The notes: generated from the letters alone by a model not told the origin. A stretch of DNA of 64,000 nt from an uncultured Chloroflexia bacterium (GCA_963788235.1 CAWBFV010000008.1:512062-576061); one strand, 5' to 3'; shown: positions 1,246 through 24,277, numbered from the stretch's first letter. Numbers and translations: made by a program.

Positions 1246-1276
1246 CGCGGGAGAGTCTATCTGCGACACTGCGCGG

Positions 1277-6929: not shown

Positions 6930-8692
6930 CGACCGACAGCGGCCGGTGCCTTCGCGCCCGGCACGTGACCGGCCGGCGTGCGCCGCAGGATCGCGCGGCG
7001 GTCGAGGTCCGCGAGGATCGCCATCACGTACTTGCGGCTCGTGCCGGTCGCGTCGCGCAACGCGGCCGGCGTCAGCGGGTCGCGCGCAGCGAGCTCGAGC
7101 GCCGTCGCGGCGAAGTCACGGTACGTGGATGTCGCGTAGGCGAGGTCGTCGTCGAGGACGACGATCCGCCCGTCGCGCTCGAGCTGGCGAACCCCCGCGG
7201 TCGGACAACCGGCGGCCCGTGCGGCATCCGTCAGGGACGGCGGCGTCGGCACGGACAGGAGGGCCTCCACGCGGTCCATCGCCGCGACCGTCGCCGGGTC
7301 CGCGGCCGGTGCCGCGATGCCGGGTGCCTGCAGCACGTCGCCGTCACGGGTGAGGCGACTGTCGGCAACGACCCGGTCCAGCACGACACCGGCTGCCGCG
7401 AGCGCCTCGTCCCGTCGGACGGTGGCCGCGCGTCGCAGGGTCAGCGCGACCGACGTCCGGACCGCCGACGACGTCGCGCCCCCGCCGACCGCCTCGATCG
7501 CCGCGGTCTCGGCAGCGCCCGCGACATCGCTCGCCAGCTCGCCCCCGAGGATCCCGTGCAGGTCGAGGCGCGCCCCCGGCCGGGGATCGATCAACGCCCC
7601 CACACGCTCCGGCGTCTGGCGCCGACGCGACAGGCCGCGGGGTGGCAGGGGGTCAAGCACGAGCCCACCGATCGGCAGGACCGGTGCCCCGCGGCGCAGC
7701 ACGAATCGGTCGCCGGCCCGCAGCGCGATCGGCTGCGCGAGGCGAATGATCCCGGCGACACGGCCGTCGGGCAGCGAGATCGCGTCCCGCCCGGCACGAC
7801 CGACGACCGCATCGACCGCGGCGGTCCCCGCGTGCACCCGACCGGCCGCTCGATCCGCGACGACCCCGTCGAACGCCACCAGGACGCGGTCGGTGGCCGT
7901 GACCTCGGGGTCGACGGTGAGGACCATCCCGCGGTGGAGCGCGGCGCGCTCGACGCCCCCGAGGTTGAGCGCGGTCCGACCGCCGCGCTCGACTCGCTCG
8001 ACCGGGGACCCGTGGACCTGGATCTCGCGGATCCGCGCCCGGCTGCCGTCGCTCGGGATGAGGCCGAGCGTGTCGCCGCGCGCCAGCGGACCACCGCGCA
8101 GCGTGCCGGTGACCACGACGCCGCGGCCCTTCGCCGTGAAGACCCGGTCGATCGCGAGTGTGGCGGGGCGATCCGGCAGCCGCACCTGGTCCCGCAGCAC
8201 CAGCACGGCATCGCGGACCGCCTCGACGCCGGCTCCGGTCAGGCTCGAGACGGCAAGGATCGGGGAACCGGCAAGCACCGTGGCGGCGAGCATCGTCTCG
8301 ACCTGGTCGCGGACGGCGCGGACGCGCTCCGCGCCGACGGCGTCGACCTTGGTGATGACCACGATGCCGATCCCGATCGCGAGCGCGTCGAGCAGCGCGA
8401 GATGCTCATGCGTCTGCGCGCGCGGGCCGTCGTCGGCGGCGACGGCGAGCATCACCGCATCGATCTCGCCCGCTCCGACGAGCATGTTGCCGACCAGCTT
8501 GTCGTGACCGGGGACGTCGACGAAATCGATCGATGTGCCGTCCTCGAGATCGAGATGCGCGTAGCCGACGTCGATCGTCATGCCGCGCCGCTGCTCTTCG
8601 GGCAGGCGATCGGCATCGATGCCGGTCAAGGCGTGGAGCAGCCGCGTCTTGCCGTGGTCGATGTGGCCGGCCGTGCCGACGACGACCGTCAC
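6926..8692 (-). CDS. selB: Selenocysteine-specific translation elongation factor
   Basis: [12 protein letters not shown]1 motif, DVPGH, and long C-terminal winged-helix-type domains. GTG at 8692 overlaps the selA stop (GTGA). Confidence 0.9.
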
Positions 8693-10057
8693 GCGACGCT
8701 CGCAAGCGCAGCCGTGACCGCGGCCGCGACACTGGCATCGGCGCCGGGATCGACCGTCCGTAGGTCGAGCACCACGCGTCCGTCCTCGATGCGGCCGATG
8801 ACCGCGGGCTGTCCCGCGCGCAAGGCGGCAAGGAGCCTCGTCGCGGACCGCGCCGACAGGCCCACGCCGGCCGACGGCAGCGTCTCGCCGGGGAGCGAGC
8901 CACCACCGACGGTCGCCTCGAGATCGACGGCGTCCGCGTCCGCACCGATCGCCCGCGCGACCGCATTCGCCCGAGCCTGTACGCCGGCGAGTGGGGCCGC
9001 GATCATCCGCCAGATCGGGATGTCGAGGACCGCGCGCCCGGATCGGTACAACCCGAGGGTGAGCGCGACACCGGCCATGCGTCGCCTTGTCGGGCCGCAT
9101 CGCTCGTGCCAGCGGGTCACGACGCATCCGCGCGACGAGGTCCGCGCGACCGACGACCAGCCCTGCTTGCGGCCCCCCGACGAGCTTGTCGCCGCTGAAC
9201 GTCACGAGGTCCGAACCCGACGCCAATCGCTCCGCCGGCATCGGCTCGTGCGACAGGCCGTAGGCCGCGGTGTCGAGCAGCGCGCCGGAGCCGAGATCGT
9301 CGATCACGAACGCGTCCTGGCGATGGGCCAGGTCGGCCACCTCCGCTGGATCCGGGGCCTCGGTGAACCCGGTCATCGCGAAGTTCGAAGGGTGGACGCG
9401 GAGGACGGCGCGAGCGCGGCCGTCCGCCAACGGCGCCTCGAAGTCCTTTGCGCGCGTTCGATTGGTGGTCCCGACCTCGACCAGCCGCGCCCCGGCGCGC
9501 CGGATGATCTCGGGGATGCGGACGCCGCCGCCGATCTCGACCAGCTCGCCGCGCGACACGACGATCCCGCCGCGTCCGACCAGGCCGACCGCCAGCGCGA
9601 GCGCCGCGGCGTTGTTGTTGGTCACGAACGCATCCTCGGCGCCGGTCAGTGCCACCAGGTGGTCCTCGGCGACGCGCGCGCGCTGGCCGCGTCGGCCGCT
9701 CGACCGATCCATCTCCAGCAGCGCGTAGTCGCTCGCGACGGCAGCGACGGCCGCCGCGACCGCCAACGGCCAGGGCGCTCGCCCGAGATTGGTATGGATC
9801 AGCACACCGGTCGCGTTGATCACCGCGGGCAGCCCTGTCGTGTCGAACGCCTGGATCCGGCCCCGCGCCTGGTCGGCGAGCGCCGCCGCATCGCGCGGTT
9901 CGGCGCCGTCGCGGATCCGTGCTCGCTCCTCGTCCACGACGCGCCGAACGACCTCCGTCAGCGCCGGGGCATCCGACCCATCGACGCTCGGTCGAAGCCG
10001 GCGCAGCACGGCGTCGACGCTGGGCGGACGAGGACGTGCGACCGGTTTCGACGACAT
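8689..10057 (-). pseudogene. selA: L-seryl-tRNA(Sec) selenium transferase, reading frame broken near 9079
   Basis: N-terminus reads from ATG 10057, preceded by GGAGG, and includes FSGDKLVGGPQAG (PLP lysine). After ...RPDKAT the conserved continuation MAGVALTLGLYRSG...GGGSLPG...IGRIEDGRVVLDLRTV is in the next frame (track ORF 8689..9120). Confidence 0.9.
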
Positions 10058-10067
10058 CGGGCCTCCG

Positions 10068-10164
10068 TGGCGGGAACGCGTGGGAGTCGAACCCACCACG
10101 CCGCGCCGAGCGCGGCGCCACCGATTTTGAAGACCGGGGGACCCACCGGGGCCCATCCATTCCC
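10068..10164 (-). tRNA. selC: tRNA-Sec (anticodon UCA)
   Basis: 97-nt reverse complement GGGAATGG...CTTCAAA...GGTTCGACTCC...CGTTCCCGCCA. It shows a 6-bp D stem with a 4-nt loop, anticodon loop CUUCAAA, a long GC-rich variable arm, a T arm and an encoded CCA. Confidence 0.9.
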
Positions 10165-10230
10165 GGAGCGATGGTAATGCGCTCGGCCCTGACTCGGCCC
10201 GCACGGCGGCGGGCAACCTATCATCGGCGG

Positions 10231-11283
10231 GTGACGACGCTGGACCGACTCCCCGACGTCCGATTGACGACGCTGACCGACTGCGGTGGCTGTGCCGCCA
10301 AGCTCGGGGCCGACCTCCTGTCCGAGGCGCTCAGCGGTCTTGGGGCCGAGGCATCGCCGGACGCCTTGATCGCCGGGCTGCACCCGCCCGATGACGCCGC
10401 CGCCTACCGGCTCACCGACGAGCTGGCGGTCATCGGAACGCTCGACTTCTTTCCTCCGCTGGTCGACGACCCGCGGACATTCGGCGAGATCGCGGCCGCG
10501 AACGCGCTGAGTGACGTCTTCGCGATGGGTGGCCGCGTCCTGTTCGCGTTGTCGATCGCGGCGTTCCCCGAAGACCTGTCACGGGACGTGATGGCGCGGA
10601 TCTTCGAGGGGGCATCGGCGAAGGTGCGCGAGGCCGGTGGAACGCTTGCCGGCGGACACACGATCCGCGATCCGGAGCCCAAGTACGGTCTGGCGGTCAT
10701 CGGCGTCGGCCACCCCGATCGCCTGCTCCGCAAGGGCGGCGCGCGACCCGGGGACGTGCTGCTGCTGACCAAACGTCTCGGGACCGGGCTGCTCGTGAGC
10801 GGTGAGCGGCAGGGCGCCACATCGGCAGCGGACCTGGCCACCGCGATCGACGAGATGCGGGCGCTCAACCGCGCCGCCTCGGAGGTCCTCGTGGCGCACG
10901 GCGTCGTAGCGGCCACCGACGTGACGGGGTTCGGGTTGCTGGGTCACGGGTTGGAGATGGCGCGGGCGTCGGGCGCCCGGTTTGTGTTCGACGCTGCCGC
11001 GCTGCCGGTCCTGCCCGGCGCGCTCGCACTCGCGCGGGACGGGGTGGAGACCGGTGGTGGCGGTCACAACCGCCGGTTCGTCGGCTCCGCCCTGGTGCTC
11101 GCCGACGGTGTGCCACCGGAGCTCGTGACGCTCGCGCACGATCCGCAGACGAGCGGCGGTCTGCTCGCGGCGGTCGCGCCGGACCGCGTCGCGCAGGTGC
11201 GATCCGACCTGGCGGCTGCCGGCGTGGATGCGTGGAGCATCGGCCGGGTCGAGGAGGCCGACCCGGCCGTCGTGCTCCGCTAA
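10231..11283 (+). CDS. selD: Selenide, water dikinase (Cys-type active site)
   Basis: LTDCGGCAAKLG N-terminal active-site loop and the AIR-synthase-like fold motif GGHTI. GTG 10231 is chosen by alignment of the N-terminus length to known SelD; an upstream ATG at 10171 is possible. Confidence 0.9.
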   Translation: MTTLDRLPDVRLTTLTDCGGCAAKLGADLLSEALSGLGAEASPDALIAGLHPPDDAAAYRLTDELAVIGTLDFFPPLVDDPRTFGEIAAANALSDVFAMGGRVLFALSIAAFPEDLSRDVMARIFEGASAKVREAGGTLAGGHTIRDPEPKYGLAVIGVGHPDRLLRKGGARPGDVLLLTKRLGTGLLVSGERQGATSAADLATAIDEMRALNRAASEVLVAHGVVAATDVTGFGLLGHGLEMARASGARFVFDAAALPVLPGALALARDGVETGGGGHNRRFVGSALVLADGVPPELVTLAHDPQTSGGLLAAVAPDRVAQVRSDLAAAGVDAWSIGRVEEADPAVVLR

Positions 11284-11286
11284 GGG

Positions 11287-12153
11287 TCAGGTCGGGCGGA
11301 TCTGGACCGTATCGATGATGGCTCGCAGGTCCGCCTTGTCGGCCGCAGTCGTGCTCGGGAAGTCGAACGCGTCGATGATGATCCGCTTCCCTTCCACGTC
11401 GAGGATCCAGACCTGGTCGTGCTCGCCGTCGAGCGCCTCGCGGAACGAGGTCCTGGCGGTGGTCCAGCGATACAGGTGGGTGGCAGTGCAACCCCGGCTG
11501 TAGTCGGCCGTGTAATCGAGGAAGCGACCCGAATACCCCCCGACACTGACGGCCTTGTCCTGGTTGACGATCGTGCCGGGCTGTTTGACCAGGGCATCGG
11601 CAAGGTCGTCGACCGTCGAACCGATCGGGGGATCCTTGGCGCCGAGGTTCGCGCCGCACGGTGTTGCATAGACATTCTCTGCGGTCCAGAAGGTGAAGCC
11701 CATGCCCGGCGGATCCGCCGAACGCTTGAACCAACCTTTGCCGCCGAGGCCGTCGTCGCCCCACAGCGTCCAACCCTCGCCGACGACCTGGAAGCTGATG
11801 TTCGCCGGATACGGAGGCCCGACGGTGAACGTCGATGGTCCCACGGACGCCGACGGCGAGGCCGCCGCGCTCACCGACGGGGTCGGGCTCGGGCTGGGTG
11901 GACCGGTACCCACGCCGCTCGACGAGGGCAAGAGTTGGCTCGCCCCGAAAGCGATCACGACCACCGCAGCCAGGGCCGCGGCAGCGCGAGCGATGGTATT
12001 CATGGACGGTTCCCTCCACGGGCCGATCACGACCCGCTGACGTGTTCGATCGATGTGGTCGCGGACGTCGTCGTACGTCCGCATCGGCAGTTCGGTCGGA
12101 CCCTCGTCGAGGAACGCCTGGATGAGTCGATCGGGCTCGCGTGGACTGGTCAT
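11287..12153 (-). CDS. Putative anti-sigma factor / single-pass membrane protein with uncharacterised extracytoplasmic domain
   Basis: Translationally coupled (ATGA) to the upstream ECF sigma gene. It has a short cytoplasmic N-terminus, one TM helix (IARAAAALAAVVVIAF), a Pro/Ser linker and a roughly 190-aa outer domain. Confidence 0.5.
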   Translation of the reverse strand: MTSPREPDRLIQAFLDEGPTELPMRTYDDVRDHIDRTRQRVVIGPWREPSMNTIARAAAALAAVVVIAFGASQLLPSSSGVGTGPPSPSPTPSVSAAASPSASVGPSTFTVGPPYPANISFQVVGEGWTLWGDDGLGGKGWFKRSADPPGMGFTFWTAENVYATPCGANLGAKDPPIGSTVDDLADALVKQPGTIVNQDKAVSVGGYSGRFLDYTADYSRGCTATHLYRWTTARTSFREALDGEHDQVWILDVEGKRIIIDAFDFPSTTAADKADLRAIIDTVQIRPT

Positions 12154-12704
12154 GCCGGTCGCTCCTCGGAGACGGAGGGCGCACGAGCGTCGGCATCGAC
12201 GCTCGCGCGGAGCGCTGCCGTGGCGTGGTGGAGGCGCGACTTGACGGTCCCGAGCGGGATCCCGAGTCGATCAGCCACCTCCGCCAGGGGCAGGCCCACG
12301 TAGTGATGGAAGACGAGCACCGCGCGCTGCTCGAGCGTCAGCCTCCGGAAGGCACGCTCCAGCTCATCGCGGTCGTTGACGGTCAGGACATCGGCAGGCT
12401 CGCGAGGCCCGTCGAGCTGGACGAGATGAAGATCGGCTGACCAGCGGCGGCGACGCCGGGCCTCGGCGTAGCACTCGTTGGTCAGGATCCGATGGAGCCA
12501 GGGTTCGAACCGATCGGGATCGCGCAGTGTCCTGATCTCGCGCCACGCCGTGATGAGCGCCACCTGGACGGCGTCGTCAGCCAGGTCGGTGTCGCGCAGG
12601 ATCCGGTAGGCGATGGCCATGCATCGATCGCCGACGGTCCGCGCCAACGCATCGAACGCCTCGGCGTCCCCACGTCGCGCACGGTCCACGAGCGCTCGAT
12701 CCAC
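12150..12704 (-). CDS. ECF-type RNA polymerase sigma factor (sigma-70 family)
   Basis: Region 2 (DAVQVALITAWRE...FEPWLHRILTNE) and region 4 (LTLEQRAVLVFHHYVGLPLAEVADRLGIPLGTVKSRLH). Confidence 0.85.
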   Translation of the reverse strand: MDRALVDRARRGDAEAFDALARTVGDRCMAIAYRILRDTDLADDAVQVALITAWREIRTLRDPDRFEPWLHRILTNECYAEARRRRRWSADLHLVQLDGPREPADVLTVNDRDELERAFRRLTLEQRAVLVFHHYVGLPLAEVADRLGIPLGTVKSRLHHATAALRASVDADARAPSVSEERPA

Positions 12705-12832: not shown

Positions 12833-13414
12833 TTAGCGGAGGCGCGAGAACACCCCGATACACGCGGCGACGAGTCCGATCAGGACGGCCGGAATGCTCT
12901 GCAGGAGGAACGCGTCCAGCGGGTAGTCCGGTAGCCCGGCACCCTCGGCACTGTCGGCGAAGGCCTGGATCTCGCGCCACGAGCCGACGAGCGAGAACGA
13001 CGCGCCGAGGAGTCCGCCGAGAACGATCCCGGCGATCGCGATCGTCAGGATGCGCGGCCCGCGCTTGATCCCGACCGAACGATCGAGGGCTTCGGCGATG
13101 AACCGTCCCGCGAAGTAGCCAAGGACGATCGTGAACAGGCCGATCTGGGCCCCGAAGTAGCCGACCGCGGCGCCCAGCCCGCCCGCGACGAGCGTGGCCA
13201 GCGCGACCTGCCGTGGCTGGAGGGTGGCCAGCGCATCTCGAGACGGCTTGCCGCAGGTCCTGCAGCGCAATCCGACCGGGCCCTGCATCGCGCACCTGGT
13301 GCAGATCGGCTGGTCGCAGCGACCGCAGCGGACCCAGGTCTCGCGGTCCGGGTGGCGGTAGCAATAGAGCGGCTGGTTCTCGGACAGGTCTGCGGTCGCG
13401 GCGTCGCTCGTCAT
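12833..13414 (-). CDS. B-box-type zinc-finger membrane protein
   Basis: CYRHPDRETWVRCGRCDQPICTRCA...CRTCG followed by about 4 predicted TM helices. ATG at 13414. Confidence 0.5.
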   Translation of the reverse strand: MTSDAATADLSENQPLYCYRHPDRETWVRCGRCDQPICTRCAMQGPVGLRCRTCGKPSRDALATLQPRQVALATLVAGGLGAAVGYFGAQIGLFTIVLGYFAGRFIAEALDRSVGIKRGPRILTIAIAGIVLGGLLGASFSLVGSWREIQAFADSAEGAGLPDYPLDAFLLQSIPAVLIGLVAACIGVFSRLR

Positions 13415-13471
13415 GGTCCCCTCGGCGAATCGATGGGGAGGGTGGGGTCCGACCGCGCTCACGTCAAGGGG

Positions 13472-13482
13472 TACACTCGGCC
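13472..13482 (+). promoter_or_regulatory. TACACTCGGCC motif (-10-like TACACT) upstream of the FDH catalytic gene
   Basis: Identical 11-mer recurs at 19419-19429 upstream of the NuoE-NuoF gene. Here it sits about 25 nt upstream of AGGAGG (13496-13501) and GTG 13509. Confidence 0.35.
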
Positions 13483-13508
13483 GCAGGTCATCCGCAGGAG
13501 GACGCCGA

Positions 13509-15422
13509 GTGGCGAAACCGTATGTTCGTCTGACCCAGCCGATGGTCCGCGACACCAAGGACGGCCCCTTGCGCGCCGCTTCCTGGGATGAGGCGCTGGA
13601 CCGCGTGGTCGCCGGGTTCGCCGCCGCCAAGGCGGCGCATGGACCGACGACGTTCGGCACCTTCAGCTGCAGCAAGGCGACCAACGAGGTCAACTTCGCC
13701 GCGCAGAAGTTCAGCCGGGCCGTGCTGGGCAGCAACAACATCGACAGCTGCAACCGCACCTGACACGCCCCGAGCGTCGCCGGTCTGGCGACCGTGTTCG
13801 GTGCCGGTGGCGGCACAAGTTCATACCGTGAGGTCGAGGACACCGATCTGATCGTCCTCTGGGGCAGCAACGCCCGCGAGACGCATCCGATCTTCTTCCA
13901 TCACGTCCTCAAGGCCGTCAACAAGGGCGCGCGGCTCTATGCGGTCGACCCCCGGCGCACGTCGTCGGCGGAATGGGCCGACAGCTGGCTCGGCCTCGAC
14001 GTGGGCAGCGACATCGCGCTCGCGAACGCGGTCGGCCGCGAGATCATCGCCTCCGGACTGCACCATCGCGAATTCATCGAGCGGGCCACCGCCGATTTCG
14101 AGGCGTACGAGGCCACGGTCGAGCCCTACACGCTCGAGTACGCCGAACGCGAGACCGGCGTCCCGGCCGACGCGATCCGCGACCTCGCCCACGCCTTGGC
14201 GACAGCACCCCGCGCGATGATCTGCTGGACGCTCGGCATCACCGAGCACCACAACGCCGTCGACAACGTCCTCGCGCTGATCTCATTGGTGCTGCTGACC
14301 GGGCACGTCGGGCGGTACGGCAGCGGCGTCAACCCGCTCCGTGGCCAGAACAACGTCCAGGGCGGCGGCGACATGGGCGCACTCCCGGACCGGTTGCCGG
14401 GGTTCCAGCACGTCGAGAACGACGAGCTCCGCACGAAGTTCGACCAGGCCTGGGGCGTGACGATCCCACCGAAGCGCGGCTGGCACTTGTCGGGCATGTT
14501 CGATGCCATGGAGCGCGGCGAGCTGACCGCCGTGTACTGCATCGGGGAGAACCCCGTCCAGTCCGAGGCCGATCAGCATCGCGCGATCAAGCTGCTGTCG
14601 GGTCTCGAGATGCTCGTGGTCCAAGACCTGTTCCTCACGAAGACCGCCGAGCTGGCGGACGTCGTGCTCCCCGCGTCCGCGGCATGGGCAGAGGGTGAGG
14701 GCACCGTCACAAACTCGGAGCGACGGGTCCAGCGGATCCGCAAGGCGGTCGAGCCGCCAGACGGCGCTCGCGACGACCTCGCGATCATCTTCGAGATCGC
14801 CGACCGGATGGGCGCGAACTGGGGCGACCCAGCCGCCGAGCGGGTCTGGGACGAAGTCAGATCGCTATCGCCGGTCCACGCCGGGATGAGCTATCAGCGG
14901 CTCGAGGAGCTTGGCGGGATCCAGTGGCCGTGCTACGACGAGACCCATCCCGGCGAGCTGTTCCTGCATAGCCGGCTCTGGGAGGATCCCGTGCCCGGCA
15001 ATCGCGTGCCATTCGTCCCGGTCGAGCACGATCCGCCGGTCGACAAGCTCAGCGACGACTTCCCGATCCGGCTCACGACCGGGCGACGGCTCGACTCGTA
15101 CAACACGGGTGTGCAGACCGCGGGCTACACCTCGCCGTTGCGTCGCGGCGAGTCCCTCGACATCTCACCCGAGGATCTGGAGACCTATGGCCTCGCCGAC
15201 GGCGAGCGCGTCCGGGTCGTGTCTCGCCGAGGCCAGGTCGAAGCGCCCGTCCGGATCGATCCGTCGTTGCGGCCGGGTCTCACGTTCATGACGCTCCATT
15301 TCCAGGACGATGTCGCGACGAACCTGCTGACGATCGACGCGACCGATCCCAAATCCGGCACGGCGGAGTTCAAGGCGACCGCGATCCGGATCGAGAAGCT
15401 GGAAGAGGCCATCCCGGCCTGA
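13509..15422 (+). CDS. fdhA: Formate dehydrogenase catalytic (molybdopterin) subunit, selenocysteine-containing (UGA at 13761-13763)
   Basis: Track ORFs 13413..13763 and 13794..15422 are in the same frame. The junction reads NNIDSCNRT-U-HAPSVAGL, matching the FdhF-type ...ARVUHGPSVAGL active site. Downstream motifs VNPLRGQNNVQGGGDMGALP are also present. The gene lacks the N-terminal Fe4S4 domain; the protein begins at the equivalent of RLKTPMIR. Confidence 0.9.
13764..13800 (+). promoter_or_regulatory. Bacterial SECIS element
   Basis: Hairpin GTCGCC-GGTCT-GGCGAC (13776-13792). The GGUCU apical loop starts 19 nt after the UGA, the same loop sequence and spacing as I recall for E. coli fdhF. 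Confidence 0.75.
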
Positions 15423-15564
15423 ACGACGGGCCGGAGCTCGCTCCGACTGACCTCGACTCCCCGTACATACGGGCGATGGCGCAACAGAAATCGAGGTCAT
15501 ACGTTTCCCCGCTACAGCCTACCCAAGCGCCTGAGGGGTATCACGGGCGCGGGGAACACCGTCG

Positions 15565-17742
15565 ATGTCGCAAGAACCGCGAACGCCATTGGTATTTCGA
15601 CCGGACCTGGAAGGGCTCCGGGGTGTGGCGATCCTGCTCGTCCTGGTCTGTCACGCCGGGATCCCCGGTGGCGAAGCCGGGTTCATCGGCGTTGACCTGT
15701 TCTTCGTGCTGTCGGGCTTCCTCATCACCGGTCTCCTCGTCAGCGAGGCCGAGGCGACCGGCCGGATCCAGCTCGCGGCCTTCTACGCGCGGCGGGCGCG
15801 GCGGATCCTCCCGCCAGCAGCCGTGGCCATCATCGGCACGCTCGCGGCGGCGAGCTTCGTGCTCTCACCGCTGGATATCCCGGCCATCGCCGACGACGCC
15901 CTCGCCGCCGGACTATCGCTCGCGAACGTCCATTTCGCGATCTCGGCGACCGACTACTTCGCCCCGGTCGACCCGTCTCCGTTCCTGCACTTCTGGTCGC
16001 TTTCGGTCGAGGAGCAGTACTACCTGATCTGGCCGGTCGTGCTCGGGCTCGCCGCTCGCCGTGCCCGCCCCCGACTGACGATGACGGTCATCGCCGCGAT
16101 CGTGCTGATCGGGTCGCTCGTGCTGTCGCTCGTGCTGACGCCCGTCGCCGGGCCATGGGCGTACTTCTCGCTCCCGGGCCGAGCGTGGCAACTGGCGGCC
16201 GGCGGCGCGCTCGCCCTCGCGGGCACCGGCCTGATCCGCCTGCCGAAGCCGATCGCGGTGCTCTCCGGCTGGATCGGTGCGGCACTGATCATCGTGTCGC
16301 TGTTGGCGATCTCGCCGATGACCGCGTACCCCGGGGTCGCCGCTGCCGGTCCGACGCTCGGCGCGCTGGGACTGATCGTGGGCGGGACGGTTCCGGGCTC
16401 GCCCGGTTGGTTGATCCTGCAGCGCGGCCCGGTGCGCTGGCTCGGCCGGATCTCGTACTCGCTCTACCTCTGGCACTGGCCGGTGCTGGTGCTCGGCGCC
16501 GCTGCCGTGGGTGCGGCTGCCACCGATGATGCGCCGGTCGCGGACCCGTTGGCCCTTCGCCTCGCCCTGATCGGCATCGCCGTCGCGCTGGCAGCCATCT
16601 CGACCTCGCTGATCGAGCGGCCGTTCCGGGCCGGACGGCTCTCGCGCGGCGGCCACCGGCGGTGGCTCGCCACGGCCGGCGCCGCGGTGCTCGGCATCGC
16701 GATCGGCTCGTCGGCGATGGGCATCGCCGCGCGCGACATCGTGTCCGCGGCGGACACGCAGGGTCTCGACGGCGAGACCGCTGCGCTGCTCGACCCGGGC
16801 GAGGGACCAGTCCACCTCGATGACGGCGAGCTCGCCGGCCCGACGTCCGGGCCGCCGCTTCCGTCGCCAGTGCCGAGCGCCTCACCGACGCCGTCGACGG
16901 CACCGACGCCCGCCCCACGGCCTCGGCCCAAGCCGCTCCTGGCGGGACCCGTTCCCGGGAACCTGACCCCGACGCTCGCGAAGGCGCGGAACGACGGCGA
17001 TCGATTGATCTCCGATGGATGCAGCCTGGGGCTCGCCGGATCCACGCCCCCGACCTGCGTCTATGGCGATCGAACGGGCGCGATCACGATCGCGCTGGTC
17101 GGCGATTCCCATGCTGCGAGCTGGTTCCCCGCGTTCCGCAAGCTCGCTGTTCGTCACCACTGGCGCCTGATCCCGTTCACGAAGTCGAGCTGCCCCTTCC
17201 TCGACGCGCGCGTCTGGTCGACGTACCTCGGTCGCGAGTACACCGAGTGCACGACGTGGCGCGAGCTCGTCATCGCGAAGCTCGTGAAGATCAAGCCCGA
17301 CGTGGTCGTCATCGCCGGCAATCGCTGGTTCCCGGTCGTCGACGACCTCGACAATTCGCCGAAGCGGCAGGGAGCGGCAACCGCGCGGCTGATCGAGCGC
17401 ATCCCAGGGCGAATCGCGCTGATGGTCGACACGCCGCGCTCCGCCTACGACGTCCCGGCGTGCCTCGCCAGCCATCGCGACGCGATCGAGGACTGCACGA
17501 CGTCGAGGGCGAACGCGTTCGGCTGGCGGCACCGCCAGCGAGAACGGGAAGCCGCGCGCCGGACCGGCGCGGCGATCATCGATCTGTCCAAGGCGACCTG
17601 CCCGTCCGATCCATGCCCGCCGATCATCGGCCGGCGGCTCGTCTATCGCGATCACCACCATCTGACCGCGACGTTCGTCGTCTCGCTCGCCGACGACCTC
17701 GACGCGGCCCTGGCACCGGTGCTCGAGGCGGCGCGGCCGTGA
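15565..17742 (+). CDS. Acyltransferase family 3 membrane protein with C-terminal SGNH domain (OafA/YrhL-like)
   Basis: RPDLEGLRGVAILLVLVCH...GVDLFFVLSGFLIT N-terminus, about 10 TM helices, and a C-terminal GDSHA motif. Confidence 0.85.
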   Translation: MSQEPRTPLVFRPDLEGLRGVAILLVLVCHAGIPGGEAGFIGVDLFFVLSGFLITGLLVSEAEATGRIQLAAFYARRARRILPPAAVAIIGTLAAASFVLSPLDIPAIADDALAAGLSLANVHFAISATDYFAPVDPSPFLHFWSLSVEEQYYLIWPVVLGLAARRARPRLTMTVIAAIVLIGSLVLSLVLTPVAGPWAYFSLPGRAWQLAAGGALALAGTGLIRLPKPIAVLSGWIGAALIIVSLLAISPMTAYPGVAAAGPTLGALGLIVGGTVPGSPGWLILQRGPVRWLGRISYSLYLWHWPVLVLGAAAVGAAATDDAPVADPLALRLALIGIAVALAAISTSLIERPFRAGRLSRGGHRRWLATAGAAVLGIAIGSSAMGIAARDIVSAADTQGLDGETAALLDPGEGPVHLDDGELAGPTSGPPLPSPVPSASPTPSTAPTPAPRPRPKPLLAGPVPGNLTPTLAKARNDGDRLISDGCSLGLAGSTPPTCVYGDRTGAITIALVGDSHAASWFPAFRKLAVRHHWRLIPFTKSSCPFLDARVWSTYLGREYTECTTWRELVIAKLVKIKPDVVVIAGNRWFPVVDDLDNSPKRQGAATARLIERIPGRIALMVDTPRSAYDVPACLASHRDAIEDCTTSRANAFGWRHRQREREAARRTGAAIIDLSKATCPSDPCPPIIGRRLVYRDHHHLTATFVVSLADDLDAALAPVLEAARP

Positions 17743-19373
17743 GGAGAGCAGGACCCGCCGGCCTCGCGGTGGTCGCGATCGCGATGCTCGTGACGGGCTG
17801 TGGGCCGACGCCGATCCCGGCCGGTGCGCCGCCGGACCGTGCCCTCTCGAGCCCCCCGCCAGCCGCTGCGCCCATCCATACACCAGAGTCCGGCCCCGCG
17901 TCCGTTCCCTCTGCACCGGCGCCGCCGACCCCGCCTGAACCCCGCCCCGCGTCGGCATCAACGCGCGTCATCCACGAAGGCGCCATCAGCCCGAAGCCGC
18001 GATCGGTCGCGGATCGTGCCTGGGAGCCGGTCGTCGCCACCCACCCGACGGATCCCGACCGCATCGCGGTCGTCTACGAGCATCGCGGACCCGGCGCGGC
18101 GTGCTCGGTCAACCCGCTCATCCGCATCTCGCACGACGGCGGTCGGACGTGGCGGACGACGCGGTCGGGTCCGGGCGCTCGCTCGAGTCGGGGCATGGGC
18201 CTCCATGCGGCGATCGCCTGGGGGCCCGGACCGCGTGGCGGCACGCGCCTGTACTGGGCCAACATGACGTCGCCTGGTTGCGGCGCCGGGCGGTTCAGCC
18301 TGTCGACTGCGTACAGCGACGACGAGGGGCGGACCTGGTCGCGGCTTCGGGTCGAGCGTCGCACGCCGCCGTGGGTCGGCGGGTTCCCCGAGATCGCGGT
18401 CGATCGCGACCCGCGCAGCCCGAACCACGGGACGGTGTATGTCGGCTACAACTGGCTCGGAGCCGGCGCCCACGGACCGGGCTTCCGGTTGTTGGCGTCG
18501 TCGGACTTCGGACGCACGTGGCGGTCGACCGAGGTCAAGCCGGCACCCCTGGCGCGCGGGGCGATCGATTGGTGGCGCATCGCCTATCGATTGCGCCCGG
18601 CACCGGACGGCAGCGTGTACGCCGCCTGGTACCAGGTCGACGTGCGCCAGTGGGATCGCCGGAACATCTTCGCCAAGGGCGGCTCGGGCAACGTCGTCCG
18701 GCTCGGGGTCGGGATCGCCCGGATCAGGTTCGAGCCCGGCACCGGCCAATTCGCGATCGGCCCGTCACGGATCGCCACCCGGATCGCCGAAACGCCATGG
18801 ACCACATCGGGCGCCAGCGCCTCAGGCACGGCCGGCAACATCCGCCCCGACCCGATGTGGCAGTACGGCTTCGACGTCGACCCGGACGGTCGGCTCTATC
18901 TGGCGGTCGGTGGGTATGGCGCGGCGCGGCTCGGGTTCGGGCGGGGCACGATCCGGGCGGGCTATTCGGACGACCAGGGCCGGACCTGGCGATTCGCAAC
19001 GGTGCCGGCGGCGCCGCACGTCGACGGGCGGCGCCAATCGATGCTCCGCCCGAACCTCGTGACAGGACGGGGCTATGTCCTGGTCACGTTCCGGACGCTC
19101 GACGACGTCGGCGCCAACGCGACGATGGGGGCGGCGTATGCGGTCTCGGTCGACCGCGGCGCGACGTGGCGGTTCGGGCGACCGGTGCACGGCGTCCGCT
19201 GGCGCGCCTCGAATCTCGACGGCGTGGTCAACGGGGCCGGGCTGCGCGAGCGAGCCGAGCGGACCGCCGATGGCGACGTCATCTGGGCGTACGGCGACGG
19301 CCGTCTTGCGATCGGCCGGGCCGCGGGGCGAACGGCGATCTTCGGGGCGAGGATCCACATCGAGGTCCGCTGA
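17739..19373 (+). CDS. BNR-repeat (sialidase-fold) lipoprotein
   Basis: GTG overlaps the upstream stop (GTGA). Lipobox LVTGC. Five SxDxGxTW repeats (SHDGGRTW, SDDEGRTW, SSDFGRTW, SDDQGRTW, SVDRGATW). Confidence 0.7.
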   Translation: MRRAGPAGLAVVAIAMLVTGCGPTPIPAGAPPDRALSSPPPAAAPIHTPESGPASVPSAPAPPTPPEPRPASASTRVIHEGAISPKPRSVADRAWEPVVATHPTDPDRIAVVYEHRGPGAACSVNPLIRISHDGGRTWRTTRSGPGARSSRGMGLHAAIAWGPGPRGGTRLYWANMTSPGCGAGRFSLSTAYSDDEGRTWSRLRVERRTPPWVGGFPEIAVDRDPRSPNHGTVYVGYNWLGAGAHGPGFRLLASSDFGRTWRSTEVKPAPLARGAIDWWRIAYRLRPAPDGSVYAAWYQVDVRQWDRRNIFAKGGSGNVVRLGVGIARIRFEPGTGQFAIGPSRIATRIAETPWTTSGASASGTAGNIRPDPMWQYGFDVDPDGRLYLAVGGYGAARLGFGRGTIRAGYSDDQGRTWRFATVPAAPHVDGRRQSMLRPNLVTGRGYVLVTFRTLDDVGANATMGAAYAVSVDRGATWRFGRPVHGVRWRASNLDGVVNGAGLRERAERTADGDVIWAYGDGRLAIGRAAGRTAIFGARIHIEVR

Positions 19374-19418
19374 CGCGCGGCATCCCCAACCGGCCCCGGC
19401 ACGTCGCCTGAGCAGCGC

Positions 19419-19429
19419 TACACTCGGCC
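19419..19429 (+). promoter_or_regulatory. TACACTCGGCC motif; -10-like hexamer 7 nt upstream of ATG (candidate leaderless promoter)
   Basis: Second exact copy of the 11-mer. There is no Shine-Dalgarno sequence between it and ATG 19432. Confidence 0.35.
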
Positions 19430-19431
19430 CG

Positions 19432-21279
19432 ATGGACCTGCACGTCATCGGGCCCCTCGCCTTCCCCGCCGAGCGCGCCGCGGTCGACAGCGTGCTCGGG
19501 CAGCCCGAATCCGGCTGGGTCGGGGGCCCGCGCCGACCGGGGACCGAGGGGCACGCGTCGCGCGGCGGCCACGCGGTCCGTGCGCGGCGCTCCCAGCTGC
19601 TGCCGGCGCTCCACGCGGTCCAGGACCGCGTCGGGTGGATCAGCCAGCCGGCCCTCAACTACATCTCACGGCGGCTCGCCGTGCCGCCGGCCGAGGCGTA
19701 CGGCGTCGCGACCTTCTACGCGCTCTATGCGACCAAGCCAAGGCCGCCGGTCATGGCCCATGTCTGCGACGACATCGCGTGCCGGATCGCCGGCGCGGAA
19801 CGGATCTGCGATGACCTCGAGCGGGCGGTCGGGCCGGAGGGCGAGGCGGCGCGCGACGGGCAGGTCGGGTGGCTCCGGTCGCCGTGCCTGGGCCTGTGCG
19901 ACCTGGCACCGGCGGCCCTCATGACCGCAGCGGGCGAGGAGGCGTCGCTCGCCAGCGCCGCGCCGGTCGACGCCGCCGGGATCGTCGCGCGGCTCGAGGG
20001 CGCGGCGTTCGGTCGGCCGGCGCCGCGGCTGCCGCAAGCGGGCTCCGAGCACCTTCGCCTGTTGCGGCGCATCGGTGTCGTCGACCCGACGTCGCTCGAC
20101 GCGTACCGCGCGGATGGCGGCTACGAGGCGCTGTCGAAGGCGATGTCGATCGGCGCCGAGGCGGTCATCGCCGAGGTGACGGCGTCGAAGCTGATGGGTC
20201 GTGGCGGCGCCGCATTCCCGACCGGTCGCAAATGGGCCGCGGTCCGCGACCAGGCCGCGCAGCCGCACTACCTCGTGTGCAACGCCGACGAGTCGGAGCC
20301 GGGCACGTTCAAGGACCGCGTGCTCCTCGAGGGCGACCCGTTCGCGATCGTGGAGGCGATGACGATCGCGGCCTTCGCGACCGGTGCCAGCCAGGGCTAC
20401 CTGTACATCCGCGGCGAGTATCCCGAGGCGGATGCGCGGATCCGCGGCGCGATCGCTGCGGCGCGAGCAGCCGGCCTGCTCGGCGCCGACATCCAGGGCT
20501 CGGGCTTCGCGTTCGACATCGAGGTTCGCCGCGGGGCCGGGGCCTATATCTGCGGCGAGGAGACCGCGCTGTTCGAGTCGATCGAGGGCAAGCGCGGCGA
20601 GCCGCGCAACAAGCCGCCGTTCCCGGTCGAGGTCGGGCTGTTCGGCAAACCGACCGTCGTGAACAACGTCGAGACGCTCGCCAACGTGCCGCTGATCCTG
20701 GCGATGGGCGGCGATGCGTACGCCCGGATCGGGACGGAGGGATCGACGGGTCCCCGCCTGTTCTGCCTGTCTGGCCACGTCCAGCGGCCCGGCGTCTACG
20801 AGGTCGAGTTCGGTGCGACGCTGGGGGACCTGATCGGCATGGCCGGTGGCGTCCCGAACGACAAGGCGATCAAGGCCATCCTGCTCGGCGGCGCGGCGGG
20901 CGTCTTCGTCGGCCCCGACTCGCTCGATCTGCCGCTCACGTTCGAGGCGACGCGCGCCGCCGGCGCGACGCTCGGGTCGGGCGTGATCATGGTGTTCGAC
21001 GAGACCGTCGACCTCGTCGACACGCTCCGTCGGATCGCCCGGTTCTTCCGCGACGAGTCGTGTGGCCAGTGCGTCCCCTGCCGGGTCGGCAGCGTGCGCC
21101 AGGAGGAGCTCCTTGCCCGTCTTGCCGCGGGGTCGCACGTCCGCTCCCGGGAGGACGAACTCGGCCTGCTGCGCGAGATCGGCCAGGCGATGCGCGACGC
21201 ATCGATCTGCGGGCTTGGCCAGACCGCGTCATCGGCGATCGAGTCGGCGCTTCGGCAGCCGGGATTGGTCGCGCTGTGA
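19432..21279 (+). CDS. NAD-linked formate dehydrogenase diaphorase subunit, NuoE-NuoF (FdsG-FdsB-like) fusion
   Basis: NuoE-type 2Fe-2S cysteines (HVCDDIAC...SPCLGLC). NuoF motifs GRGGAAFPTGRKW and ESEPGTFKDR, and the 4Fe-4S motif ESCGQCVPCRVG. Confidence 0.9.
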   Translation: MDLHVIGPLAFPAERAAVDSVLGQPESGWVGGPRRPGTEGHASRGGHAVRARRSQLLPALHAVQDRVGWISQPALNYISRRLAVPPAEAYGVATFYALYATKPRPPVMAHVCDDIACRIAGAERICDDLERAVGPEGEAARDGQVGWLRSPCLGLCDLAPAALMTAAGEEASLASAAPVDAAGIVARLEGAAFGRPAPRLPQAGSEHLRLLRRIGVVDPTSLDAYRADGGYEALSKAMSIGAEAVIAEVTASKLMGRGGAAFPTGRKWAAVRDQAAQPHYLVCNADESEPGTFKDRVLLEGDPFAIVEAMTIAAFATGASQGYLYIRGEYPEADARIRGAIAAARAAGLLGADIQGSGFAFDIEVRRGAGAYICGEETALFESIEGKRGEPRNKPPFPVEVGLFGKPTVVNNVETLANVPLILAMGGDAYARIGTEGSTGPRLFCLSGHVQRPGVYEVEFGATLGDLIGMAGGVPNDKAIKAILLGGAAGVFVGPDSLDLPLTFEATRAAGATLGSGVIMVFDETVDLVDTLRRIARFFRDESCGQCVPCRVGSVRQEELLARLAAGSHVRSREDELGLLREIGQAMRDASICGLGQTASSAIESALRQPGLVAL

Positions 21280-22374
21280 CCCAGGACACGAGCGGGCTGT
21301 CGATGAGCCGCGACCCGGCGCCGGATCCGCGGTCGCCCCACGCCGGCCAGGCGCCTGCCGCGCAGCCGCTCACCGAGATCGTCCTGTTCCCGCCGGCCCG
21401 CCCCTCGAAGCCACCGGTGGCGCCACCGGTCGAGCCGCCACCGACCGTCGAGCTGACGATCGACGGGCAGACCGTCGCCGTCCCTGCGGGGACGACGATC
21501 CTCGGGTGCGTGCCGGGCGCTCGGCATCGACACGCCGACGCTGTGCTACGCCGAGAACCTGACGCCGGTCAACGTGTGCCGCGTCTGCGTGGTCGAGGTC
21601 ACCGGGTCGCGGGTGCTCGCCCCGGCCTGTTCGCGCAAGGTCGAGCCAGGGATGGAGGTCCAGACCGACACCGATCGCGTCCGGACCTCGCGCAAGGTCG
21701 TGCTGGAGTTCCTCGGCTCGTCGGTGGACGTGTCCTTGACCGGTCCGGCGACTCCCGACGGCACGATCCACGACTACATGGCCCGCTACGGCGCCGATCC
21801 GTCGCGCTACGGTCCGCCGGCGGAGGCCGCCCGCGCCGGGGAGCGCGACAGCCACGAGCCGGGGCATCATCACGCGCCTGCGGGCGATGCCACCACGGCC
21901 ACGGTGGCCCAGCCGACGAAGGTCGACAACGACCTCTATGTCCGCGACTACTCGAAGTGCATCCTCTGCTACAAGTGCGTCGAGGCGTGCGGCGAGGACG
22001 CGCAGAACACGTTCGCGATCGCGGTGGCCGGCCGCGGGTTCGATGCCCGCATCTCGACCGAGCAGGCCGTCCCGCTGCCGGAGTCGGCGTGCGTGTACTG
22101 CGGCAACTGCATCGGCGTGTGCCCGACCGGCGCGTTGATGGCCAAGCCCGAGTACGACATGCGGGCGGCCGGCACCTGGGATGAATCGGCCCAGACCGTC
22201 ACGAGCACGATCTGCCCGTACTGCGGCGTCGGCTGCGTGGTCGACCTGCACGTCCAGGACGACCGCATCCTGAAGGTGACGTCGCCGCTCGACTCATCGG
22301 TGACCGGTGGCCACCTGTGCATCAAGGGCCGGTTCGGCTTCGAGTTCGTGAACGAGCGGCCGCAGCAGGGCTAA
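21276..22374 (+). pseudogene. Formate dehydrogenase alpha, N-terminal Fe-S module only (NuoG-like), reading frame broken near 21505
   Basis: GTG overlaps the nuoF-like stop (GTGA). ...VELTIDGQTVAVPAGTTILG is in one frame and ACRALGIDTPTLCYAENLTPVNVCRVCVVEV... is in the next, consistent with an extra G in the GGG run at 21504-21506. Two ferredoxin-type CxxCxxCxxxC motifs follow. The Molybdop_Fe4S4 motif ICPYCGVGC...GHLCIKGRFGFEFVN is followed 6 codons later by the stop. Confidence 0.8.
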
Positions 22375-23135
22375 CGACCCACCGCAACCCCGCGTGGTGG
22401 ACCATCCAGGATGCTCACGGTCGTGCCGTCGATCCGGATCCAGACGATCGCGTCACCCGGCCACGGCGATCCTGCGCAGAGCGAATCGAAGGCTGCTCGC
22501 GACGACGCTGGATAGGCTGCTCGCAGGGTCGATTCGAACGAGCGAGCGACGGCCCGCGTCGCCTCAGTCGAGCGGATGACGAGGAGCTTCGATACGGGCG
22601 GGATCGGCCCACCTCCGACGATCGCCGAAGATCCGATGGCGGCTGCCTTCTCGGCGATCCAACGAAGTTGCTGCTCGAGTCTGGGCAAGGCCGATTGGAA
22701 CTCGGAAACCACCAGGACCGGTCGATCACGGCGCTCGAAGACGGCATCGATGACGCCCCTCGACGGCCGTGAGACTGGGACTTCGAGGTGCGGCCGCCAG
22801 ACTGCGTGCAGGTGCCGAAGTACTGCCTCGACCATCGCTGCCTGATGGCGGTCGGTGAGCCTGGCACCGACCCCCGCGTAAAGCCGGACGGATACGTCTG
22901 CCCCGAGCGCGGCAGCACACGCCACGAGGGCCTCGAGGCTCGGATGCGCCAAACCGCGCTCGATCCGTGCGACATACGTGCGATCGATGCCGGCCGCAGC
23001 CGCCACCTCTGTCACGCTGGCTCCCGCATCCATGCGTGCCTGCATGAGGTCGTCGCCGAGCTTGCGCTCGATCCGACGCAGACGCTCTCGCACGGATTGC
23101 CGAATCACTCGCGAGCGCGGAACGCGTCTGCCCAT
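22371..23135 (-). CDS. XRE-family HTH regulator with uncharacterised C-terminal domain (paralog of 53458..54189)
   Basis: HTH segment ASVTEVAAAAGIDRTYVARIERG. The roughly 170-aa C-terminal domain includes GVIDAVFERRDRPVLVVSEFQS. Its stop overlaps the convergent FDH Fe-S gene stop. Confidence 0.7.
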   Translation of the reverse strand: MGRRVPRSRVIRQSVRERLRRIERKLGDDLMQARMDAGASVTEVAAAAGIDRTYVARIERGLAHPSLEALVACAAALGADVSVRLYAGVGARLTDRHQAAMVEAVLRHLHAVWRPHLEVPVSRPSRGVIDAVFERRDRPVLVVSEFQSALPRLEQQLRWIAEKAAAIGSSAIVGGGPIPPVSKLLVIRSTEATRAVARSFESTLRAAYPASSRAAFDSLCAGSPWPGDAIVWIRIDGTTVSILDGPPRGVAVGR

Positions 23136-23363: not shown

Positions 23364-24254
23364 CTAGCCCCAGCCGGTCAGGTCGCGCAGGTCGATCCGG
23401 CGGTCGTGGCTGTACACGTTGAAGCCATCGCCCCGCAGGAAGCCCACGAGCGTCACGCCGAGCCGCTCGGCGGTCTCGACCGCCAGGTCCGATGGGGCCG
23501 ACACCGCCGCGAGGATCGGTGCCCCCGCGATCGCGGCTTTCTGGACGATCTCGAAGCTCACGCGCCCCGACACCATCACGATCCGGTCGTGCAGGGGCAG
23601 CGCGCCGGCCAGCAGCTGTGCCCCGATCAGCTTGTCGAGCGCGTTGTGCCGCCCGACGTCCTCGCGGATGTCGATGAGCTCGCCATGCGGCGAGAACAGC
23701 GCCGCCGCGTGCAGGCCACCGGTGGCGTCGAAGGCGCGCTGCGCGGCCCGCAACAGGTCGGGGAGTGCCAGGATCACGGTCCGCGGCACGACCGGGCCCT
23801 CGGGCAGGATGTCGCAGCGGAGCGCGATCTCGTCGATCGACGCCTTGCCGCAGATGCCGCACGACGCCGTCGCCACGAAATGGCGCTCGGCGACCGCGCT
23901 GTCGTCGAACGGCACCGTGAGCCGCACGATGATGGTGTCGTCGGGCTGGTTGAGCGTGACGGGATCGCCGGCCTCCCACGACTCGACCTCGTGCCCCTCG
24001 ATCAAGCCCTCGGTCCGGAGGAACCCGACCGCCAGCTCCGCCTCGTGGCCGGGTGTGCGCATCGTCACCGCGACCGCGACCGGCTCCTGGCCCGGCCCGG
24101 CGGCCCGGATCTCCAACGGTGCTTCGCCGACGACGCGATCGGCGCGGACCTCCAGGGTGTCGCCGCGGACCGTGACCACCGAGCGCGTCGTGATGTGGCG
24201 CGTCGGCGAGACGTGCGAGGGCTGCGCGGTCGCCGGATCGGTCGAATGGGTCAT
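23364..24254 (-). CDS. fdhD: Formate dehydrogenase accessory sulfurtransferase
   Basis: SCGICGK catalytic loop and EDVGRHNALDKLIG motif. Confidence 0.9.
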   Translation of the reverse strand: MTHSTDPATAQPSHVSPTRHITTRSVVTVRGDTLEVRADRVVGEAPLEIRAAGPGQEPVAVAVTMRTPGHEAELAVGFLRTEGLIEGHEVESWEAGDPVTLNQPDDTIIVRLTVPFDDSAVAERHFVATASCGICGKASIDEIALRCDILPEGPVVPRTVILALPDLLRAAQRAFDATGGLHAAALFSPHGELIDIREDVGRHNALDKLIGAQLLAGALPLHDRIVMVSGRVSFEIVQKAAIAGAPILAAVSAPSDLAVETAERLGVTLVGFLRGDGFNVYSHDRRIDLRDLTGWG

Positions 24255-24277
24255 CGATCGCGAGTGTAGCGGCGGCC

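Follow-up and report, generated by a model that had tools for sequence, protein, structure and literature searches.

A predicted selenocysteine-dependent formate dehydrogenase with its alpha subunit encoded by two separate genes

The window analysed here is a stretch of 64,000 nucleotides from an uncultured Chloroflexia bacterium (GCA_963788235.1 CAWBFV010000008.1:512062-576061), and all positions are counted from its first letter. Between positions 13,509 and 22,374, in a region of about 70% G+C, it carries the genes of a molybdenum- or tungsten-dependent (Mo/W) formate dehydrogenase (FDH). The alpha subunit of this enzyme is distributed over two genes, as a first-pass annotation, made from the sequence by a model, had proposed. 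The coding parts of the enzyme and the signals embedded in them are:

13509-15422, plus strand: fdhA-C (alpha-C), catalytic molybdopterin subunit of 637 residues with selenocysteine (Sec) at residue 85 and no iron-sulfur (Fe-S) motif
13761-13763, plus strand: Sec codon TGA, in frame in alpha-C, within the motif NNIDSCNRT-U-HAPSVAGL
13770-13801, plus strand: selenocysteine insertion sequence (SECIS) hairpin, core GUCGCC-GGUCU-GGCGAC at 13776-13792
19432-21279, plus strand: NuoE-NuoF fusion (NuoEF), NAD(H)/flavin mononucleotide (FMN) diaphorase subunit
21303-22374, plus strand: fdhA-N (alpha-N), Fe-S subunit of 356 residues after frame repair

The catalytic gene starts with a GTG at 13509, preceded by an AGGAGG ribosome-binding site (13496-13501, 7-nt spacer), and ends with the TGA at 15420-15422. 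Its product begins with VAKPYVRLTQPMVRD, where an intact FdhA/FdhF would continue, which agrees with the first reading of this gene as an independently started catalytic half. Pfam assigns to it the Molybdopterin domain (PF00384, residues 7-432, E = 1.7e-69) and the Molydop_binding domain (PF01568, residues 521-624, E = 2.6e-26), and nothing else; neither Pfam nor the alignment to TIGR01591 finds a Molybdop_Fe4S4 domain or its Cys motif. The active-site Arg motif, of the PLRGQNNVQG type, reads NPLRGQNNVQGGGD and aligns with the same motif of FdhF from the hydrogen-dependent CO2 reductase (HDCR). The top structural match of alpha-C is PDB 7QV7. Alpha-N has motifs for one [2Fe-2S] cluster, two [4Fe-4S] clusters and the FS0 [4Fe-4S] cluster, recognised by Pfam as Fer2_4, two Fer4 sites and Molybdop_Fe4S4, the latter at residues 298-350 of 356. 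Its carboxyl terminus, ICPYCGVGC...GHLCIKGRFGFEFVNERPQQG, ends 11 residues past KGRFG with the TAA stop at 22372-22374, so that the Fe-S module does close just past Molybdop_Fe4S4, as first described. The FS0 motif CX2CX3CXnC is thus found on a separate polypeptide, at the carboxyl terminus of alpha-N and not in alpha-C.

The two products tile the intact enzyme. Alpha-N aligns to residues 6-304 of the FdsA protein of Rhodobacter capsulatus (PDB 6TG9), and alpha-C to residues 308-931. On the NCBIfam model TIGR01591 they cover positions 1-51 and 53-672, respectively, with no overlap. Scores against this model are 649.4 bits for alpha-C, below the cut-off of 666.25, and 51.5 bits for alpha-N, which stays below the cut-off of every curated family. 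Residues 7-632 of alpha-C align to residues 61-689 of Escherichia coli FdhF. In FdhF numbering the cut lies at about residues 52-60, which places Cys8, Cys11, Cys15, Cys42 and Lys44 all on alpha-N. In R. capsulatus FDH (RcFDH) the alpha subunit is composed of a HoxU-like amino-terminal module of 250 residues followed by a FdhF-like module of 700 residues (PMC7171172). The cut is found about 55 residues into the FdhF-like module rather than at the HoxU-like/FdhF-like junction at about FdsA residue 250 (PMC7171172), a position that favors descent from a fused alpha subunit by fission over a primitive unfused state. The cut had been described as clean and at a domain boundary; this holds for the Pfam boundary but not for the structural module, inside which it falls.

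The same organization was found well beyond this genome. Scanning of GTDB species genomes returned 80 loci, with 72-90% identity to alpha-C of the window, mostly from Chloroflexota (Limnocylindria/Ellin6529 lineage) and otherwise from Acidobacteriota, Rokubacteria/Methylomirabilota and Isosphaeraceae. All 81 related loci have the same break, in independent assemblies from short and long reads and in several phyla. In each of them, as in the window, the HoxU/NuoG-like module and the catalytic domain have a gene each. The catalytic gene starts 5-8 codons ahead of RLTQPLVR in 83/83 alpha-C sequences, with unrelated sequence upstream and no Fe-S module attached. The stop of alpha-N lies 5-26 codons past KGRFG in the 61 genes recovered, apart from a few longer outliers. 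Since identical breaks occur in 81 loci from independent assemblies, the split is real and not an artefact; the comparison of synteny and domain architecture that had been proposed as a check revealed no contiguous fdhA in these loci.

Database homologues give the same picture. Alpha-C has more than 120 at 85-99% identity, the best 120 all annotated as proteins of about 542 amino acids, corresponding to the part after the TGA, and the best 120 of alpha-N are 319-392 amino acids long, all without a Molybdopterin domain; no fused version was seen in either set. In a protein library clustered at 50%, split-type alpha-N proteins are found down to about 47-54% identity and fused enzymes only at about 46% or less. 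Library matches of 360-440 amino acids at 37-43% identity, considered as candidates for distant split forms, turned out to be the amino-terminal parts of fused Sec-containing FdhA proteins truncated at their own TGA. Alpha-N has ratios of nonsynonymous to synonymous substitutions (dN/dS) of 0.08-0.15 relative to its nearest relatives, a sign of purifying selection, and all its cluster-binding Cys are invariant across the aligned family. We hold with good confidence that the split alpha subunit represents an ancient and conserved gene fission in a cytoplasmic, Sec-dependent Mo/W FDH of the NAD-linked FdsABG/Fdh1AB type, made of three polypeptides.

The in-frame TGA, which the first-pass annotation had passed over, aligns to the position of the catalytic Sec or Cys ligand of FdhF-type enzymes (C-x-R-x-(U/C)-H). 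A TGA occupies this position in 83/83 orthologous sequences and a Cys in none. The hairpin begins 9-15 nt past the UGA. Across 65 distinct orthologous sequences its five codons have a synonymous entropy of 0-0.33 bits, and the flanking four-fold degenerate codons 1.3-1.85 bits. The hairpin is in the same codon register as the SECIS of E. coli fdhF; both lie at GGU CUG (Gly-Leu) codons. The genes for Sec synthesis and insertion, as well as the gene for a maturation factor of FDH, are found near the enzyme:

6929-11283 (within), minus strand: selB and selA (Pfam SelA, GTP_EFTU, SelB-wing_3)
10068-10164, minus strand: tRNA-Sec, selC (ARAGORN)
about 10300-11283, plus strand: selD (Pfam AIRS, AIRS_C)
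23364-24254, minus strand: fdhD, FDH-cofactor sulfurtransferase/chaperone (Pfam FdhD-NarQ, E = 9e-64)

All four sel genes are located at most 7 kb upstream of alpha-C. In related loci selD is also upstream in about 50 cases and fdhD follows alpha-N in 38. The invariant TGA, the frozen silent sites of the hairpin and the presence of tRNA-Sec together with selA, selB and selD alongside identify the TGA as a Sec codon and not as the stop of a pseudogene.

Pfam finds in NuoEF the domains 2Fe-2S_thioredx, Complex1_51K, SLBB and NADH_4Fe-4S, and its top PDB matches include FdsB proteins (6VW7_B, 6TG9_B), that of Cupriavidus necator among them, and NuoF proteins. NuoEF does not have the carboxyl-terminal ferredoxin extension that forms the extra domain of bifurcating HydB-type subunits. 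Judged from domain and motif content, all parts of a soluble FDH of the FdsABG/Fdh1AB type are present, and the enzyme is probably a formate:NAD+ oxidoreductase with NAD+ as acceptor. Alpha-C would carry the bis-pyranopterin cofactor and its Sec ligand; alpha-N would hold the [2Fe-2S] cluster, two [4Fe-4S] clusters, FS0 and the pterin-side Lys of the C-x-K-G motif; NuoEF would contribute FMN, the NAD(H) site and two further Fe-S clusters. We propose that the FS0 domain of alpha-N and its adjacent Lys dock on alpha-C as they do within intact FdhF or FdsA. Electrons from formate would then pass from the Mo/W-pterin to FS0 in trans, through the two [4Fe-4S] clusters to the [2Fe-2S] cluster of alpha-N, and on to the [4Fe-4S] cluster of NuoF, FMN and NAD+. 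The first-pass proposal of a three-polypeptide complex whose cofactor and first Fe-S cluster sit on different chains gains support from the comparison of loci; as for the physical assembly of alpha-C, alpha-N and NuoEF into one complex, we infer it.

One cluster of the known enzymes is missing from this set, which had also escaped the earlier reading. The A4/N5 His-Cys3 site (HxxxCxxCxxxxxC) is replaced in alpha-N by SSVDVSLTGPATPDG, with no match to PF10588, and the A4 region (about 21690-21750, residues ~130-150 of alpha-N) is a Cys-free segment, EFLGSSVDVSLTGP... The motif is missing from all aligned members of the split family. Fused relatives that keep it are P0245, P0259, P0260, P0263, P0267, P0268, P0149 and P0236, but not P0265. 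In RcFDH the A4 cluster is located at the dimer interface, aside from the main route of the electrons (PMC7171172), so the electron chain should be intact despite the loss and coupling of dimers through A4 is not expected.

The closest described systems are FdsABG(D) of R. capsulatus and C. necator (6TGA, 6VW7), which have the same NuoE-like, NuoF-like, HoxU/NuoG-like, FS0 and FdhF-like modules. There FdsA is one continuous polypeptide of about 958 amino acids, which in the split enzyme is cut at about residue 305, the halves aligning end to end with FdsA. The ligand of FdsA is Cys instead of Sec, FdsA has the A4 His-Cys3 site at the dimer interface where the split enzyme has none, and FdsG and FdsB are encoded by separate genes whereas here they are fused as NuoEF. 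The presence of a FdhD/FdsC-type gene nearby is a further likeness to these systems; no FdsD was seen at the split locus. FDH1 of Methylobacterium extorquens (Fdh1A and Fdh1B; 7E5Z, 7VW6) is likewise composed of an alpha subunit with a NuoG-like amino terminus and a diaphorase partner. Fdh1A is an intact, 989-amino-acid tungsten enzyme subunit with a Cys ligand, so that two genes correspond to the three described here. As in the window, the diaphorase partner Fdh1B is a single NuoE-NuoF fusion polypeptide. E. coli FdhF (FDH-H; 1FDO, 1AA6) has Sec at the homologous position and the same C-x-R-x-U-H motif as alpha-C. It keeps Cys8, Cys11, Cys15, Cys42 and Lys44 on the catalytic chain, whereas the segment equivalent to its residues ~1-55 is here the carboxyl terminus of alpha-N.

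Separate polypeptides for electron transfer are also known from the FdhF-HycB enzyme of HDCR and from FdhF-HylABC, some of whose Fe-S modules are NuoG-like. FdhF of these enzymes retains its own Molybdop_Fe4S4 domain, unlike alpha-C. A catalytic unit with a Mo/W-bis-pyranopterin guanine dinucleotide cofactor (bisPGD) made of two polypeptides has its known precedent in formylmethanofuran dehydrogenase (FwdB/FwdD, FmdB/FmdD); in the enzyme of Methanothermobacter wolfeii the carboxyl terminus is replaced by an additional subunit (PMC7171172). In that split the carboxyl-terminal Molydop_binding domain is cut off and FS0 stays on the catalytic chain, whereas here it is the amino-terminal FS0 domain that is removed.

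The order of the genes is conserved as well. In 71 of 82 loci (window included) alpha-C is followed by NuoEF on the same strand, and 62 have the full order alpha-C, NuoEF, alpha-N; incomplete orders are due to contig ends, except in loci L001 and L062. Outside Chloroflexota the three genes abut: alpha-C and NuoEF are about 3-250 nt apart, with a median of 17 and with many loci at 3-13 nt. Within the Limnocylindria lineage the same spacing runs from a few nucleotides to 7.3 kb, with contents that differ between genomes. The order had been described as a permuted fdsGBA operon, which fits the abutting genes of Acidobacteriota, Rokubacteria and Isosphaeraceae. In our best explanation alpha-C, NuoEF, alpha-N is the ancestral order of the family. 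C-EF-N is EF-(N-C) rotated, and we hypothesize that a tandem duplication that then lost its ends could have produced it. A compact alpha-C/NuoEF/alpha-N cassette is also found on three metagenome contigs (L083-L085), where it is flanked by insertion sequence elements (rve, IS110, ISL3). These flanks and the 72-77% identity between phyla point to horizontal spread of the cassette.

In the window the two halves are indeed about 6 kb apart with envelope genes between them, as first noted, but this distance reflects a local insertion and not the design of the enzyme. The genes between and around the halves are:

15565-17742, plus strand: AT3+SGNH acyltransferase (Pfam Acyl_transf_3 and SGNH), a lineage-specific insertion and not part of the enzyme
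17739-19373, plus strand: BNR-repeat lipoprotein (Pfam BNR; signal peptide with lipobox LVTGC), a lineage-specific insertion and not part of the enzyme
12833-13417, minus strand: divergent gene with no Pfam match and a Cys-rich amino terminus, MTSD...YCYRHPDRETWVRCGRCDQPIC
22371-23135, minus strand: helix-turn-helix gene, convergent, overlapping the alpha-N stop

The last two correspond to the divergent gene upstream of alpha-C and the convergent gene at the alpha-N stop that had been reported on either side of the pieces. A homologue of the acyltransferase is found in the spacer of L003, on the same strand, and of L046 and L047, on the opposite strand, and nowhere else; no homologue of the BNR protein was found in any related locus, so that it is unique to the window. 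L003, an independent Illumina metagenome-assembled genome (MAG), shares the synteny selD / upstream gene / alpha-C / acyltransferase. This narrow occurrence among relatives indicates that the acyltransferase and BNR genes were inserted locally in a permissive spacer. The GTG start of the BNR gene (17739) overlaps the TGA stop of the acyltransferase gene (17740-17742), which suggests that the inserted pair is translationally coupled and probably came in together.

A hexamer, TACACT, occurs three times in the window, each time just upstream of an FDH-related unit:

13472-13477, plus strand: TACACT box upstream of alpha-C, 31 nt before the GTG, with the Shine-Dalgarno sequence in between
19419-19424, plus strand: TACACT box upstream of NuoEF, 7 nt before the ATG
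24263-24268, minus strand: TACACT box upstream of fdhD, 8 nt before the ATG

The 11-mer TACACTCGGCC is found only at the alpha-C upstream box and at 19419, with 0.01 occurrences expected by chance. The box upstream of alpha-C and the 'ccgcaggagg' Shine-Dalgarno sequence are kept in most Limnocylindria-type loci, and TACACT or TAGACT stands 7-8 nt ahead of ATGGACCT in nearly all of them. Among the 121 TACACT hexamers in 1.14 Mb of Limnocylindria-type loci, 80 lie no more than 60 nt ahead of alpha-C (42 cases) or of NuoEF (38 cases). Of the other 41, many stand 5-9 nt before an ATG or GTG, several of these ahead of fdhD. Position and spacing suggest that TACACT is a -10-type box, which would yield a short-leader transcript for alpha-C and leaderless transcripts for NuoEF-alpha-N and fdhD. 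On this reading alpha-C and NuoEF-alpha-N would form separate, similarly controlled units in Limnocylindria, and separate promoter boxes of this type would explain why insertions between them are tolerated there. The box may be an FDH-specific promoter or operator, or simply the strong -10 box of this lineage. A scan of 13300-22600 for sigma-70 promoter and intrinsic terminator consensus sequences returned nothing.

Several explanations other than a conserved fission were weighed. A chimera in which the assembler broke and rearranged a contiguous fdhA might be suspected in a window that is probably a long-read metagenome assembly and contains indel errors, with the alpha-C product recorded on a single 1.16-Mb contig. 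This explanation is effectively refuted by the recurrence of one and the same break, with its start codon, ribosome-binding site and stop region, in 81 other loci obtained in independent projects with different technologies, and by the lack of a fused form among the closest homologues mentioned above. The halves might also not be partners: alpha-N and NuoEF could form a separate HoxFU-like diaphorase that serves another enzyme, and alpha-C could work alone or with another redox partner. The separate promoter-like boxes of the Limnocylindria units, which are 0.05-7 kb apart, and the larger separation in L001 and L062 are in favor of this. However, alpha-C has no Fe-S cluster of its own for electron exit, the FS0 motif that it is missing is exactly the carboxyl-terminal domain of alpha-N, the three genes are directly adjacent in other phyla (3-13 nt apart in many loci), and the same box precedes both units and fdhD. 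We consider independent partners very improbable.

A third alternative concerns the state of the enzyme in this particular genome. Alpha-N carries a frameshift, unremarked in the first-pass annotation:

21504-21506, plus strand: extra G in alpha-N, with the frame changing between ...TTILG and ACRALGIDTPTLCY

The window reads ATCCTCGGGTGCGTGCCGG at this site and its relatives ATCCTCGGCGCxTGCCG (TILGACR). Pfam matches split between frames show that selA is shifted near 9080 (about 9078-9082), with PF03841 positions 1-248 and 248-366 in two frames, due to an extra A in GCATGG, outside a homopolymer. The FDH-unrelated resB is shifted at about 59400-59620, with PF05140 positions 2-271 and 410-465 in two frames. 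A frame plot of G+C at third codon positions across the window was too noisy for the detection of frameshifts. Programmed frameshifting in alpha-N was considered and ruled out, the shift being found in no relative. If the alpha-N and selA shifts were real, the two genes would be recent pseudogenes and the Sec-dependent FDH of this genome would be decaying, a view to which two of three window frameshifts falling in the FDH/Sec system, and the selA insertion not being in a homopolymer, lend some weight. Yet the third frameshift is in the unrelated resB, and related long-read MAGs have frame breaks elsewhere in NuoEF and alpha-N, whereas among the clearly short-read assemblies (with k-mer or NODE names) only L032 has split high-scoring segment pairs. 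Alpha-N is otherwise undecayed, with its low dN/dS and intact Cys ligands, and alpha-C, NuoEF, fdhD, selD and tRNA-Sec are intact. Decay is thus quite unlikely. Because selA and resB are also shifted and long-read MAGs show frame breaks of their own, an assembly indel is the likeliest cause of the alpha-N shift, and very probably the correct one.

The interpretation of the locus as a conserved, functional split FDH has to be held against a number of observations that weigh against it. Every member found comes from uncultured organisms: no cultured host appears among the 80 best genome loci or the 120 best alpha-N proteins, all of which stem from MAGs or metagenomes. A protein on a 4.66-Mb contig also proved to come from a metagenome assembly. 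The hairpin is no more stable than shuffled sequences of its G+C-rich composition (z = -0.44), and Rfam, in E-value mode over 13000-23000, gave no SECIS family and just chance matches to microRNA and small nucleolar RNA families. With alpha-N and selA both frameshifted, this copy could be inactive if the shifts are real. The three genes are not kept together in L001 and L062, and NAD+ specificity is deduced from homology.

The split FDH is a real, widespread, mechanistically notable and undescribed variant of the enzyme, and not a new type of system. To our knowledge FS0 is on the same chain as its pterin cofactor in every characterised Mo/W-bisPGD enzyme that has FS0. The split was not described in the full-text literature searched, which included the ForCE paper and a review of metal FDHs (Chem Rev, 2026), subscription-only papers being outside this search. 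It implies that placing the proximal cluster and the conserved Lys on another polypeptide is tolerated and has been kept in several phyla of bacteria that are abundant in soil and sediment, and it offers a natural cut site for the modular engineering of FDHs and CO2 reductases. Source annotations do not convey this: alpha-N is named '2Fe-2S iron-sulfur cluster-binding protein', 'YjgC' or 'HndD', and gene callers break alpha-C at the TGA into pieces of 84 and 542 amino acids. As a consequence of such generic and separate annotation, metabolic reconstructions of Limnocylindria, Acidobacteriota and Rokubacteria may miss a complete module for NAD-linked, Sec-dependent formate oxidation.

A possible physiological context of the module is seen in L001 (937-9633; 3.1-Mb contig), where it adjoins RuBisCO and other Calvin-cycle genes. 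In this locus alpha-N is 9 kb upstream of alpha-C and the genes between the halves code for the large and small subunits of RuBisCO, CbbX, fructose-1,6-bisphosphatase, phosphoribulokinase, a formamidase, an AmiS/UreI channel and a LysR regulator. This layout suggests that oxidation of formate and formamide is coupled to Calvin-cycle CO2 fixation.

It is tempting to see the split as adaptive, combining a single origin by circular permutation, spread as a mobile cassette and retention by selection. The joint proposal is tentative and we think it rather unlikely as a whole. A NuoEF-fdhA tandem duplication would have lost its ends and left C-EF-N; the resulting mobile three-gene cassette would have moved between soil phyla; and it would have been retained because the catalytic chain, whose Se-dependent synthesis and loading with cofactor are slow, is uncoupled in this way from the Fe-S/diaphorase module. 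If so, failed read-through of the UGA would release a harmless peptide of 84 residues, while the same failure in a fused enzyme would leave an Fe-S fragment of 390 residues that could poison the diaphorase. The enzyme would also be the first Mo/W-bisPGD enzyme with FS0 and the pterin-contacting Lys provided in trans.

Some further features of the window were recorded. An extracytoplasmic function sigma factor gene (12150-12704, minus strand) lies between selD and alpha-C, and L003 has a homologue of the divergent 12833-13417 gene at the same place. The ORF at 965-3607 (plus strand) contains a major facilitator superfamily transporter domain (residues 118-527) followed by an S-adenosylmethionine-dependent methyltransferase domain (residues 651-777), and reflects either an unusual fusion or a further indel that has merged two genes.

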